A stretch of 4,583 nucleotides of DNA from a virus (taxonomy: Duplodnaviria; Heunggongvirae; Uroviricota; Caudoviricetes), in IMG/VR virus record IMGVR_UViG_2711768022_000007; one strand, 5' to 3'. The position numbers and the translations under genes were made by a program. Positions within the stretch are counted from its first letter, which is position 1. Each line of letters opens with the position of its first letter. Below the pieces are notes generated by a model. It ran no database searches and was not told where the DNA came from. It worked only from the letters and a program-made list of their open reading frames with translations. Of the stretch, positions 1 to 4,583 are shown in pieces.

Positions 1-79
1 GCTTTGAACTCTTTAGAGTAACGTTGGGTTTTTCTGCTCATTATTAGCTCCTTCTGATGCCATTCTATTTCAGGAAGGA

Positions 80-343
80 GTGTCCGTTAAACTCAGGCTA
101 CCTCAGGTTATTCGCTTCTGGGCATGGGCGGATCAACAAATGATAGACGGTAATGCAGATTGTAACGCTCGCGGCGTTACAAAAAGTGCAATAGATCGCA
201 TCACTTTTATGTCTGGTTTTGCTGATGCGTTAATTCAGGTTGGATGGCTGGTCGAAAATGACGGAGGGCTTTCTCTACCTAACTTTGAACGTCATAACGG
301 AAAAAGCTCTAAAAAAAACGGGCGGTTACAAACGAGCGAGTAA
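80..343 (+). CDS. Phage replication protein, YdaU-like (DUF1376-type), N-terminal fragment; frame is interrupted
   Basis: ORF from GTG at 80 (the only canonical start after the in-frame TAG at 14-16), preceded by AGGAAGGA at 72-79 with short spacing. It ends at TAA 341-343, but a protein-like reading continues in the -1 frame from the A8 run at 311-318. It sits directly upstream of the DnaC-like gene, the position of the initiator in Rac and lambda. The family name is from recalled synteny, not from a search. Confidence 0.55.
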   Translation: MSVKLRLPQVIRFWAWADQQMIDGNADCNARGVTKSAIDRITFMSGFADALIQVGWLVENDGGLSLPNFERHNGKSSKKNGRLQTSE

Positions 344-1498: not shown

Positions 1499-1514
1499 AG
1501 TTTCAGGAGGATTT

Positions 1515-1937
1515 ATGGCGAAACCTTTTACTCCCGAACAGCGGGAAGAACTGAAGACGCGAATTGTGGAACTCGTGCATCAGGACGGTCGGGTCACGAT
1601 TCGGCAGTTGTCAGATGAAACAGGTATCAGTCGTGCGTCTGTCGGTCGCTTATGCATAGAACTGGTCGCAAGTGGTGATGTATATAATTCTGGCTACGGC
1701 TTATTCCCGTCTGAACAGGCTCGCAAGGACTGGCAAAGCGCCCGCAAAAAACTCTCGAGAGTAAAGGTGAGGAAACCGGTTGTTGTTGATCCGGACCTTA
1801 TCTGGTCATTACCTGACGGAGAAATACGCCGCTACGACAGGCGCCTGAATATAATCTGTCGCGAGTGCCGGAAGAGCGAAGCTATGCAGCGTGTACTGGC
1901 TTTCTATCAGGGTAATTTTCAGGAGGCGATACTGTGA
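1515..1937 (+). CDS. ren: Ren-like protein (lambda ren family, Rex-exclusion resistance), 141 aa
   Basis: ATG at 1515 with a perfect AGGAGG at 1505-1510. The C-terminus (NIICRECRKSEAMQRVLAFYQG) matches the lambda Ren C-terminus as I recall it (NLVFKECRQSAAMKRVLAVYG). The N-terminal part has a helix-turn-helix-like stretch (RVTIRQLSDETGISRASVGRL). It lies immediately downstream of the P/DnaC-like gene, as ren does in lambda. It is longer than lambda Ren (96 aa) because of a central insertion of roughly 45 aa. The frame is open back into the gap, so an upstream start cannot be excluded. Confidence 0.6.
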   Translation: MAKPFTPEQREELKTRIVELVHQDGRVTIRQLSDETGISRASVGRLCIELVASGDVYNSGYGLFPSEQARKDWQSARKKLSRVKVRKPVVVDPDLIWSLPDGEIRRYDRRLNIICRECRKSEAMQRVLAFYQGNFQEAIL

Positions 1938-1994
1938 ATGAAATTAGCTATCAGGCTTCAATTACCGCTGGCATTCGCATCAAAGGAGAGGAGC

Positions 1995-2351
1995 ATGGAA
2001 ATAAAACCAGAAGATGAGTTAAGCAATATCGTTTTATTTCCGGTAAAAGAGGATGACCCTCGTAATCAGGTTAATTTTCTTTATGAGCCATCGGAAAGAC
2101 CATATTGCCATCACGCCTCTGTACGGGTTGACGAAAAAGAGCGTCAGGTCCGCTGTAAAATCTGCGGTGCGGTTGTGGAGCCGTTTGACTGGATGCTCTC
2201 TGTGGCAAAAAGAGAAACCAGACTGGCAGATGATGTAAGGCTATTGCGCCAGGAGGAACAGGAAAGGCGGAGAAATATAGAAAAGCTGATACAGATTGAG
2301 CGTAACGCGAAAGCGCGGATACGCAGGGCGACAAAATCCAGAACTGAATAA
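1995..2351 (+). CDS. Hypothetical small protein with Zn-ribbon-like motif and C-terminal basic coiled-coil region
   Basis: ATG at 1995 with AAGGAG/GGAG at 1984-1993. An alternative start is the ATG at 1938, which directly abuts the ren stop (TGAATG) and has AGGAGG 11 nt upstream. The motif C-H-H, then 18 residues, then C-x-x-C (PYCHHASVRV...RCKICG) is followed by a charged heptad-like tail (RLLRQEEQERRRNIEKLIQIERNAKARIRRA). Codon periodicity looks good. I do not recognise the family. Confidence 0.6.
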   Translation: MEIKPEDELSNIVLFPVKEDDPRNQVNFLYEPSERPYCHHASVRVDEKERQVRCKICGAVVEPFDWMLSVAKRETRLADDVRLLRQEEQERRRNIEKLIQIERNAKARIRRATKSRTE

Positions 2352-2456
2352 TTAAATTTAGCACTGTTAAAAATTTAATCCTTAACCGGAGGGATTTCTG
2401 CACCCTCAAATCATCAGGAGACCACCCGAAAGGGCGGGGAGCAGTCACACATCTGT

Positions 2457-2485
2457 TTCCGATAGCCCCGTTCTAATGCTACACT
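2457..2485 (+). promoter_or_regulatory. Weak candidate sigma70 promoter upstream of the QueH-like gene
   Basis: TTCCGA (2457-2462), 17 nt spacer, TACACT (2480-2485). The -35 is poor. An alternative -35-like TTGATA sits at 2488-2493. Confidence 0.2.
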
Positions 2486-2498
2486 CTTTGATATTTTT

Positions 2499-3185
2499 AT
2501 GACCCCAATAAACATATTTATGACAGTTGCTGATTTCAAACGGCCCAAATTGGAGCTCCCAAACGGGGCAAACAAACTACTACTGCACTCTTGCTGTGCT
2601 CCATGTTCCGGTGAGGTGATGGAGGCGCTTCAGGCCTCGGGAATCGACTACACCATCTTTTTCTACAACCCGAACATTCATCCTCAGAAAGAGTATTTAA
2701 TTCGTAAGGATGAGAATATTCGCTTTGCTGAACAACACGGCGTGCCGTTTATTGATGCTGATTACGACACAGACAACTGGTTTGAACGAGCCAAAGGAAT
2801 GGAATGGGAGCCCGAACGAGGGATCCGTTGCACCATGTGTTTTGACATGCGTTTTGAGCGGACAGCGCTGTACGCCGCTGAAAATGGTTTCAGTGTGATC
2901 AGCAGTTCACTGGGCATTTCACGCTGGAAAAATATGCAGCAGGTTAACGACTGTGGGCGGCGAGCCGTCGCGCATTATCCGGGCATGGTGTACTGGGATT
3001 ATAACTGGCGCAAGCAGGGCGGCTCGTCCCGTATGATTGAAATCAGCAAGCGCGAAAAATTCTATCAGCAGGAATATTGTGGCTGTGTGTATTCTCTGCG
3101 CGATACCAATCTACACCGCAAATCTCAGGGACGCCCTCTTATCAAAATTGGTCAACTCCACTACGGTAAAGAAGAGAAGGAGTGA
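2499..3185 (+). CDS. queH: QueH-like epoxyqueuosine reductase (DUF208 family, Fe-S, cobalamin-independent)
   Basis: 228-aa ORF carrying the motifs I associate with DUF208/QueH: [25 protein letters not shown] and YCGCVYS. The alternative start at 2520 is in frame; neither ATG has a clear Shine-Dalgarno. Assignment is by motif recognition only. Confidence 0.75.
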
Positions 3186-3206
3186 TTTTATGGGGCACCT
3201 TTCTGA

Positions 3207-3236
3207 TTGATTTCATATTGGCGAGGTAAGTAGAAT
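3207..3236 (+). promoter_or_regulatory. Candidate promoter of the hok/mok mRNA
   Basis: TTGATT (3207-3212), 18 nt spacer, TAGAAT (3231-3236). The predicted start near 3243 gives a 5' end GGGUGCUUGAGGCU..., which resembles the 5' end of plasmid R1 hok mRNA as I recall it. Confidence 0.45.
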
Positions 3237-3297
3237 GACTGCGGGTGCTTGAGGCTATCTGCTTCAGGCATGAACACCAAAAGGCAGATAGAGAAAA

Positions 3298-3364
3298 GCC
3301 CCAGTTAACATTACGCGTCCGGCAAGACGCTTAACATTAATCTGAGGCCAATTTCATGCTTTGC
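3298..3364 (-). ncRNA. sok: Sok-like antisense RNA (antitoxin of the hok/sok type I system); approximate extent
   Basis: Minus-strand promoter-like elements: -35 TTGCCT (complement of 3394-3399), 17 nt spacer, -10 TAACCT (complement of 3371-3376). The transcript would start near 3364 and be antisense to the mok translation-initiation region (mok ATG at 3356), as in known hok/sok loci. The 3' end is not defined; I found no clean terminator. Confidence 0.35.
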
Positions 3365-3568
3365 ACATGTAGGTTAGCCTCTTACATGCCGAAAGGCAAG
3401 GAGAAGCAGGCTATGAAGCAGCAAAAGGCGATGTTAATCGCCCTGATCGTCATCTGTTTAACCGTCATAGTGACGGCACTGGTAACGAGGAAAGACCTCT
3501 GTGAGGTACGAATCCGAACCGGCCAGACGGAGGTCGCTGTCTTCGTAGACTACGAATCCAGGAAGTAA
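3356..3568 (+). CDS. mok: Mok-like regulatory reading frame (in-frame N-terminal extension of Hok)
   Basis: ATG at 3356 with GAGG at 3344-3347. The N-terminal extension MLCTCRLASYMPKGKEKQA-MKQ... parallels chromosomal MokC (recalled as MLNTCRVPLTDRKVKEKRA-MKQ...). Same frame and same stop as hok. Confidence 0.5.
   Translation: MLCTCRLASYMPKGKEKQAMKQQKAMLIALIVICLTVIVTALVTRKDLCEVRIRTGQTEVAVFVDYESRK
3413..3568 (+). CDS. hok: Hok-family type I toxin (HokD/Gef-like, 51 aa, membrane-active)
   Basis: MKQQKAMLIALIVICLTVIVTALVTRKDLCEVRIRTGQTEVAVF... is near-identical to chromosomal HokD/HokC as I recall them until the last seven or so residues. AAGGAG at 3398-3403 lies 9 nt before the ATG. Single transmembrane helix plus the conserved C-terminal Cys region. 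Confidence 0.85.
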   Translation: MKQQKAMLIALIVICLTVIVTALVTRKDLCEVRIRTGQTEVAVFVDYESRK

Positions 3569-3576
3569 GAGTGACC

Positions 3577-3604
3577 GGGCGGGGAGCTGATCCCATCCCC
3601 GCCC
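3577..3604 (+). promoter_or_regulatory. Stable stem-loop in the hok mRNA 3' UTR
   Basis: Perfect 9-bp inverted repeat GGGCGGGGA (3577-3585) and TCCCCGCCC (3596-3604) with a 10-nt loop, just after the hok stop. It is not followed by a U-run, so it is structural or regulatory rather than a terminator. Confidence 0.5.
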
Positions 3605-3644
3605 ACCTCTGATGTGTCAGGCATCCTCAACGCACCCGCACTTA

Positions 3645-3688
3645 ACCCGCCCATCGCTGTGATCTCTCAGCGTTTCGGCGGGTTTTTT
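3645..3688 (+). terminator. Rho-independent terminator of the hok mRNA
   Basis: Outer stem ACCCGCC (3645-3651) pairs with GGCGGGT (3677-3683); inner stem CGCTG (3655-3659) pairs with CAGCG (3668-3672); a T6 run follows at 3683-3688. Confidence 0.6.
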
Positions 3689-3708
3689 GTTGTTTATTTC
3701 CGGTGAAT

Positions 3709-3736
3709 TTGATTCGCGCACCTTCGCAGATAGAAT
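3709..3736 (+). promoter_or_regulatory. Candidate sigma70 promoter for the downstream ORFs
   Basis: TTGATT (3709-3714), 16 nt spacer, TAGAAT (3731-3736), located just after the hok terminator and about 80 nt before the 3818 ORF. Confidence 0.35.
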
Positions 3737-3817
3737 CGACTCACTTAAGTAGCGCGCAGGGAGAAGAGGGATGGACCCCGAACAGGGGAGAGCTATTTAT
3801 CTGGAAGGATTCTGAAG

Positions 3818-4105
3818 ATGAAAATCGAAGAATTGCGTGAAATTTTTAGTGAAAATGGCCTCTATGCTGTGCGCGTTGAGAATGGAGCGATTGTCAGCCA
3901 TTGCCGCATTAGATGTTTGCAATCTCAACAAAGGAAGAGCGGTGCTGTGTTATTTTATTTTTGTAATGGACTTCTGACGGACGGTTTTATTTTGCGTGAG
4001 GACGAATTTGTCACATCATTACGGGTTTTGAAAGAGATTGGTTTTAAGGCTGGTTTTCTGCTTTTGCTGAAGAATAAACTCATCTACAATCTTGAGCAGG
4101 ATTGA
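3818..4105 (+). CDS. Hypothetical protein, 95 aa, AT-rich orphan ORF
   Basis: ATG at 3818 with AAGGA at 3805-3809 and an 8-nt spacer. Codon periodicity looks coding. It is visibly more AT-rich than its neighbours (about 38% GC in the first 60 nt by hand count). The stop TGA 4103-4105 overlaps a TTG at 4102. I do not recognise the family. Confidence 0.5.
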   Translation: MKIEELREIFSENGLYAVRVENGAIVSHCRIRCLQSQQRKSGAVLFYFCNGLLTDGFILREDEFVTSLRVLKEIGFKAGFLLLLKNKLIYNLEQD

Positions 4106-4143
4106 ACTCCTGCTGTGTAACACCGTGCCACCGGAGAAAGCCG

Positions 4144-4497
4144 ATGGCACATATACAACTGGTCAAACAAACCTCTTCCGGATTACTTCTCCCGGCGACG
4201 CCGGAGAGTTGCGATTTTCTGCATCAAATCAAAATAGGTGAGTGGATACACGCAGACTTTAAGCGTGTGTGTAACTACGCATTCCACAAGCGTTTTTTCA
4301 AACTCCTGCAACTGGGTTTCGATTACTGGACTCCGGTCGGTGGGGCGATCACGCCTCGCGAACGAAAACTGGTGTCCGGTTTCGTTGATTACCTGTGTGA
4401 ATCAGTAGGCCGGGAACATACGCCAGCTCTGAGCGAAGCCGCAGAGCAATTGAGGTGTACTGGCAATAGCGGACACTACCATTTGTTCTTTTTTTAA
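4144..4497 (+). CDS. Conserved lambdoid nin-region hypothetical protein, possibly DUF1367-like and shorter than expected
   Basis: ATG at 4144 with GGAG at 4133-4136 and a 7-nt spacer. The track start is the TTG at 4102, which overlaps the upstream stop. The N-terminus MAHIQLVKQTSSGLLLPATPE...ADFKR...AFHKRFF resembles my memory of a prophage family common in E. coli nin regions (DUF1367); this is tentative. It ends at TAA 4495-4497 and no other frame continues it. Confidence 0.5.
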   Translation: MAHIQLVKQTSSGLLLPATPESCDFLHQIKIGEWIHADFKRVCNYAFHKRFFKLLQLGFDYWTPVGGAITPRERKLVSGFVDYLCESVGREHTPALSEAAEQLRCTGNSGHYHLFFF

Positions 4498-4508
4498 GCA
4501 GCCATCTG

Positions 4509-4583
4509 ATGATATTTTTCCCTGAAGGCTGCCGGGGAGATATTCCCCAGACGAGAGTGACGACGCTGACGATTGTAGAAAAT
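4509..4583 (+). CDS. 5' end of an ORF running off the window (MIFFPEGCRGDIPQTRVTTLTIVEN...), unknown product
   Basis: ATG at 4509, 11 nt after the upstream stop and in the same orientation. There is no clear Shine-Dalgarno and only 25 codons are visible. Confidence 0.25.
   Translation, partial: MIFFPEGCRGDIPQTRVTTLTIVEN

Follow-up and report, generated by a model that had tools for sequence, protein, structure and literature searches.

A Rem-family gene with a frameshifted C-terminus in a Shigella-type Rac/Qin-like prophage and its probable role as an antirepressor

The small open reading frame (ORF) behind the hok/sok locus of the window (the whole 4,583-nucleotide stretch of DNA that was analyzed) almost certainly belongs to the Rem family (PF27490 / phrog_340), and by analogy to Rem of the Escherichia coli K-12 prophage Qin its product probably works as an antirepressor of a DicA-type repressor. 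This kind of gene has already been described, and the allele is set apart by a frameshift at its C-terminus. The main yield of the analysis is a correction of annotation, by which a protein named "hypothetical" in RefSeq is moved to a family for which a part in prophage derepression has been demonstrated. The host element is a Shigella-type prophage, similar to Rac and Qin, into which IS copies have inserted. Coordinates of the features discussed are collected in Table 1.

Table 1. Coordinates and supporting evidence for rem and adjacent features of the window
Feature	Position	Strand	Evidence
sok	3243-3418		RF01794, E=4e-27
hok	3413-3568		PF01848
hok mRNA 3' terminator hairpin, AACCCGCC ... 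GGCGGGTT then T-run	3644-3690	+	inverted repeat I2; fold z = -3.9
Sigma-70-like promoter of rem, TTGATT-N16-TAGAAT	3709-3736	+	score 9/12; -10 invariant in all loci
Conserved leader (putative 5' UTR) of rem, 75 nt	3743-3817	+	mean pairwise identity 0.88
14-codon upstream ORF (MDPEQGRAIYLEGF, then stop), GGGAG 5' of it	3771-3815	+	sequence
Shine-Dalgarno GGAAGGA of rem	3803-3809	+	8 nt 5' of ATG; kept in every locus type but Rac 442/2
rem coding sequence, frameshifted 95-aa allele	3818-4105	+	phrog_340, PF27490, K-12 Rem match, dN/dS
Conserved rem core, codons 1-80	3818-4057	+	
T4 run, site of 1-nt deletion	4054-4057	+	alignment A1 column 529; census of 24 loci; P0003
Hairpin GCAGGA-TTGAAC-TCCTGC between rem and next gene	4096-4113	+	alignment

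Results

Assignment of the ORF to the Rem family

The ORF starts with ATG and encodes a protein of 95 aa that was found to match the phrog_340 profile (E=6e-20) and Rem of the K-12 Qin prophage (b1561; 68% identity over 80 aa, BLASTP 2e-34). A large protein search returned 77 homologs, all of which (77/77) carried the precomputed Pfam label PF27490. The same precomputed label is attached to the exact window protein, PF27490 is named "Rem" in the contig look-up, and the orthologous gene is labelled rem in phage GenBank records. Scans of the ORF against local Pfam-A and NCBIfam gave nothing usable, with a sub-threshold Hfq match (E=0.12) as the sole return; the Pfam-A result was empty (0 usable matches) because the PF27490 model is absent from the copy that was scanned. 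In a preliminary description of this DNA, the gene had been called an orphan, and remote homology search and structure prediction had been advised. The family was recovered by homology searches, no structural homolog was found, and the orphan status no longer stands, with the rem locus detected by blastn in 3,042 of 5,426 complete E. coli genomes.

The exact window protein occurs in Shigella sonnei, S. flexneri and E. coli and is indexed in 4,517 blocks of an assembly collection, corresponding to thousands of Shigella assemblies. The family is small and centered on Escherichia and Shigella, with 8 loci identified by contig scan and 55 representatives by profile search of 1.84 billion proteins. 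A K-12-type rem locus was also observed in L019, a 22.9-kb contig assigned to a Veillonella parvula MAG that is most likely mis-binned Escherichia DNA. The compositional distinctness noted previously was borne out as far as AT-richness is concerned, since the GC content of the ORF is 39.6% compared to 49% for the whole window and 46-55% for the neighboring genes. It is not a local peculiarity of the window copy, as low GC (0.37-0.42) is common to every rem allele.

At the level of residues, every invariant column of the family core GF-LR-(D/E)EFVTSL ... KAG(F/L) is intact in the window protein (G56, F57, E63, F64, V65, T66, S67, L68, A78 and G79). Distant relatives of 56-99 aa have only the C-terminal core GF-L-EFVTSL ... 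AG in common, and the window protein matches there too. Purifying selection acts at the protein level on codons 1-80: dN/dS values were 0.13-0.37 at dS of 0.45-1.0, and variable columns were distributed 30/19/45 over codon positions 1/2/3.

A one-base deletion replaces the C-terminal tail

The length of 95 aa results from the loss of one T in the T-run immediately behind the core. In an eight-locus DNA alignment, one base of GGTTTT(T)CTG was missing from the window alone (column 529); the other seven loci (7/7) had one base more and encoded products of 83-86 aa. By census of the T-run at 24 loci, T4 was found in all loci of window type, and T5 or CT4 in the other readable rem loci. The family-typical C-terminus consists of SAF followed by acidic residues, for a total of 83-87 aa, and such an end is missing from the window protein. 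The usual ...KAGF-SAFxxE, then stop, has become ...KAGF-LLLLKNKLIYNLEQD, then stop, such that the six-residue tail SAFxxE is exchanged for 15 unrelated residues right after the conserved core. One family member (P0003) is the window protein as far as KAGF and ends thereafter in SAFAEE and a stop codon; the ancestral stop would be the TAA at 4075-4077.

The frameshift is likely tolerated, as judged from its place in the sequence, because the change begins exactly where conservation in the wider family stops. Residues past AG[FL] vary freely among distant relatives. Since the tail is unconserved in distant relatives, its non-native form was counted as a difference between alleles and not as exclusion from the family. 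The frameshift could still harm folding or binding, and the new tail has a pLDDT below 50 in the structure model. The allele is a naturally occurring test of the importance of the acidic tail. Decayed rem copies of 42 aa (L022, a second copy in E. coli ECMA0423) and 69 aa (P0030, Shigella dysenteriae) were observed elsewhere, and these truncated copies show repeated decay of rem in some lineages.

Promoter, leader and upstream ORF

The sigma-70-like element and the good Shine-Dalgarno that had been pointed out behind the hok terminator are both present. Taken alone, TTGATT-N16-TAGAAT is no better than chance (2 seen vs 1.3 expected per 1.1 kb), and the promoter is better supported by comparison between loci than by its score. 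The -10 TAGAAT is unchanged in every locus, with the orthologous sites reading TTGAAG-N18-TAGAAT in K-12 Qin and TTGAGG-N16-TAGAAT in Rac 442/2. The DNA 5' of the -10 falls into three unrelated types (identity to the window 0.14-0.33), each with its own TTGnnn at 16-18 nt 5' of the -10. Together with the dN/dS values, the invariant -10 and the TTG -35-like element in three unrelated upstream contexts uphold the earlier view of a real, separately promoted small prophage gene. BLAST homology between loci begins at 3743, the same position at which a transcript start had been proposed; this boundary fits a start there, and we infer that the rem transcript begins near 3743. A promoter-like site with the same hexamers, TTGATT and TAGAAT, and an 18-nt spacer was also observed 5' of hok/sok (3207-3236).

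No LexA box was found at the rem promoter by search for CTG-N10-CAG with at most one mismatch (23 matches vs 18 expected); the sole LexA-like match near the promoter (CTTAAGTAGCGCGCAG, 3744-3759) has a broken CTG core and a GC-rich spacer. Comparison with the immunity region for common operator-like sequence returned no k-mer of at least 9 nt save T-runs.

The leader is more similar between loci than the coding sequence, at a mean pairwise identity of 0.88 compared to 0.80, and than the -35/spacer region (0.51); between the two most divergent loci, the margin over the coding sequence shrinks to 0.77 compared to 0.73. The 14-codon upstream ORF had been suggested to be regulatory. The ORF is present and its ATG conserved (GTG in L010), but elsewhere the peptide has 3, 8, 14 or 15 codons or is fused in frame to rem. 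Since the length varies among loci, the peptide is not conserved and the suggestion is weakened. By consensus folding, the leader was found to contain a small CCC(C)/GGGG hairpin with one compensatory pair, a covariation term of -0.65 kcal/mol and length differences that fall in the loop. GGA-rich stretches occur at the start of the upstream ORF and at the rem Shine-Dalgarno. As a lead to CsrA binding, the leader count of 6 GGA was not significantly enriched over dinucleotide shuffles (4.2 +/- 1.25; 276 of 2,000 shuffles reached 6), and a literature search returned no paper tying CsrA to rem. An Rfam scan of the window matched sok alone, with no match in the leader.

The rem leader was also observed in front of a second small-protein family (P0067, P0072 and P0075; 57 aa; at least 1,000 contigs; loci L009 1577-1750 and L023 1958-2130). 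In this family the first 23 residues (MKIEELREIFSENGLYAVRVENG) are as in Rem, and the C-terminal half is unrelated and devoid of the EFVTSL core. A mosaic joint is one possible account of the second family, an alternative effector module another.

Discussion

Probable antirepressor function and cognate repressor

When expressed ectopically, K-12 Rem raises dicBp-lacZ expression 165-fold and induces a filamentation that needs the Qin prophage and dicB or dicF, from which the authors concluded that DicA is the target of antirepression by K-12 Rem (Ragunathan et al., J Bacteriol 2023, PMC10448788). In that study, no phenotype was seen on deletion of K-12 rem under the conditions used, and the inducing signal was stated by its authors to be unknown (PMC10448788). 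Antirepressor activity has been demonstrated for K-12 Rem alone and the window allele is known from sequence; the same activity is probable for the latter by homology.

A DicA-type repressor of 135 aa was found in all four types of rem-bearing prophage that were examined (window type, PPompW, Rac 442/2 and K-12). Both dicA and dicC are annotated in PPompW and Rac 442/2, and dicA in K-12. The two loci L001 and L014, which carry the exact window allele, encode a 135-aa HTH protein that is 62% identical to DicA. In L014 (CP102341.1), which is identical to window positions 1499-4583, the repressor gene lies about 5.9 kb 5' of rem, past an IS insertion and outside the window. With a cognate repressor 62% identical to DicA, specificity may differ from that of K-12 Rem.

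In the proposed mechanism, rem would be transcribed, most likely, from its own sigma-70 promoter (3709-3736), with a start near 3743 and through the conserved 75-nt leader. Rem would then bind the immunity repressor of its own prophage, a short DicA-type protein that is not cleavable, and remove it from its operators, and the early operons would be derepressed. The loss of one T at 4054-4057, which replaces the tail past the core, would presumably be tolerated in this scheme. The Shigella copy may still relieve repression by the DicA-type repressor of the IS-damaged prophage that carries it, or by those of other resident prophages.

Comparison with known antirepressors

The window gene is like K-12 Qin rem in its 80-residue core (68% identity), in its place after a hok gene (hokD in K-12) and its terminator, in the invariant -10 and conserved leader, and in its residence in a prophage with a 135-aa DicA-type repressor. 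By contrast to K-12 Rem, the window protein has a four-residue insertion (SQQR, 36-39) and 15 residues in place of the last six owing to the frameshift, and the 3' neighbor of the gene is DUF1367/irsA-like instead of ydfU.

The Gifsy antirepressors of Salmonella act by binding repressors that are short and non-cleavable, which are thereby freed from DNA, and DicA and RacR have been grouped with the Gifsy-type repressors (Lemire et al., PLoS Genet 2011, PMC3121763). Rem was itself reached by iterated searches that started at the Gifsy antirepressor GfoA, the link being made only through an intermediate PSI-BLAST match (PMC10448788). Like rem, the genes for GfoA, GftA and GfhA are small and map away from the immunity region, between a terminator-like palindrome and irsA (DUF1367), which follows directly, and their products target short non-cleavable DicA/RacR-like repressors. 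In Gifsy-2 the order is dinI, gftA (11464-11685, 73 aa) and irsA, with an irsA 54% identical to the DUF1367 gene of the window (4144-4450). The Gifsy genes are under LexA control behind a dinI homolog, whereas rem has neither a LexA box nor dinI. No significant sequence homology to Gifsy-2 GftA was obtained with the Rem profile (hhalign probability 1.1%). Direct binding of a repressor has been demonstrated for the Gifsy antirepressors only, and direct binding by Rem is presumed. Tum of phage 186 and Ant of P22 are also small proteins that inactivate an immunity repressor by binding and not by cleavage; Tum is under LexA, and Ant under Arc/Mnt and sar RNA. These proteins share the logic of Rem but are unrelated to it in sequence and size and differ in regulation.

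Alternative explanations

It is unlikely that the window gene is an inactive relic, i.e., a Rem homolog by descent that is now devoid of activity. Its one-base deletion relative to all other locus types is consistent with such a fate, as are the truncated rem copies of other lineages and the IS copies that flank the segment, truncating the ydaU-like and DUF1367 genes, where selection may be relaxed. However, the change is confined to the variable tail past the conserved core, the promoter, Shine-Dalgarno and start codon are all intact, and the allele is carried stably in thousands of Shigella assemblies (the 4,517 index blocks). The same allele also resides in an apparently complete prophage (L001, L011) with repressor, replication, lysis and packaging genes. 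A function as antirepressor, as demonstrated for the characterized homolog (PMC10448788), argues against the superinfection-exclusion, anti-defence or toxin-immunity factor that had been guessed at in the preliminary description and that we consider highly improbable. All that speaks for such a factor is the position of the gene, which is small, AT-rich, separately promoted and beside a toxin-antitoxin locus in a prophage. Yet PADLOC matched 0 families at E <= 1 with both the 95-aa and 86-aa forms of the protein, its conserved part has no signal peptide or membrane segment, and the rem-type leader and N-terminus also occur without an adjoining hok (L009).

There is hardly any likelihood that the leader (as an RNA element, upstream ORF or regulator binding site) is the main functional element and the ORF secondary. 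The excess of leader over coding-sequence identity, the compensatory pair, and the sharing of the leader with a gene family of different C-terminal half would agree with this. By contrast, the coding sequence is under clear purifying selection at the protein level, the leader has no Rfam match, its covariation is limited to the single pair and small term given above, and its advantage in identity nearly vanishes in the most divergent pair; recent recombination could also produce the pattern. Rem as an antirepressor is retained as the preferred reading of the gene. Within it, the leader, with its preserved uORF start, the GGGAG, the small hairpin and the GGA-rich stretches, is a doubtful candidate for a cis-regulatory element that gates antirepressor synthesis, a role that might be exerted by uORF-coupled translation or a global RNA-binding regulator. 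If true, the gating leader would provide the signal that is still lacking for derepression of prophages through Rem. The conserved leader is a concrete place to seek the Rem-inducing signal.

Neighborhood of rem and other features of the window

In the annotated contexts of eight loci, rem is placed in the nin region, between the hok terminator and Q; in the window, the gene that follows it is the DUF1367 (irsA-like) gene. Membership of rem in the hok mRNA or the sok unit was considered and rejected, based on the terminator between them and on the presence of the rem-type leader without hok in L009. Compact orthologous terminators are found in K-12 and Rac 442/2. The loop of the window terminator was observed to have an insertion of about 23 nt (3652-3676) with its own small GCTG/CAGC stem, which is absent from the other aligned loci (7/7); because of this loop insertion, the hairpin is missed by a simple terminator scan. 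On the 3' side of rem, the hairpin before the next gene is conserved across the locus types regardless of what that next gene is. Of its six pairs, three are changed on both sides with pairing kept, no T-run comes after it, and the stop codon of the frameshifted rem ORF lies within its loop.

The ends of the window (1-105 and 4451-4583) are copies of one IS3-family element in the same orientation, presumably IS600-like, with terminal repeats beginning TGAGGT. A ydaU-like replication gene is interrupted by the left copy, and the DUF1367/irsA-like gene is cut short by the right one after approximately residue 103 of about 199. A run of 277 N (1222-1498) masks the 3' part of a DnaC/YdaV-like gene and creates a false 382-aa ORF (789-1937); the mask is not length-preserving, as 312 real bases are found at this site in L013 and L014. 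A gene for the epoxyqueuosine reductase QueH (2499-3185; PF02677, E=2e-65; phrog_3217), located between the replication genes and hok, is carried as prophage cargo. A 118-aa protein encoded between the DUF977 gene and queH (1995-2351) matches phrog_1621 (E=3e-56) and has a zinc-ribbon-like motif, with a sub-threshold match to the TFIIB zinc ribbon.
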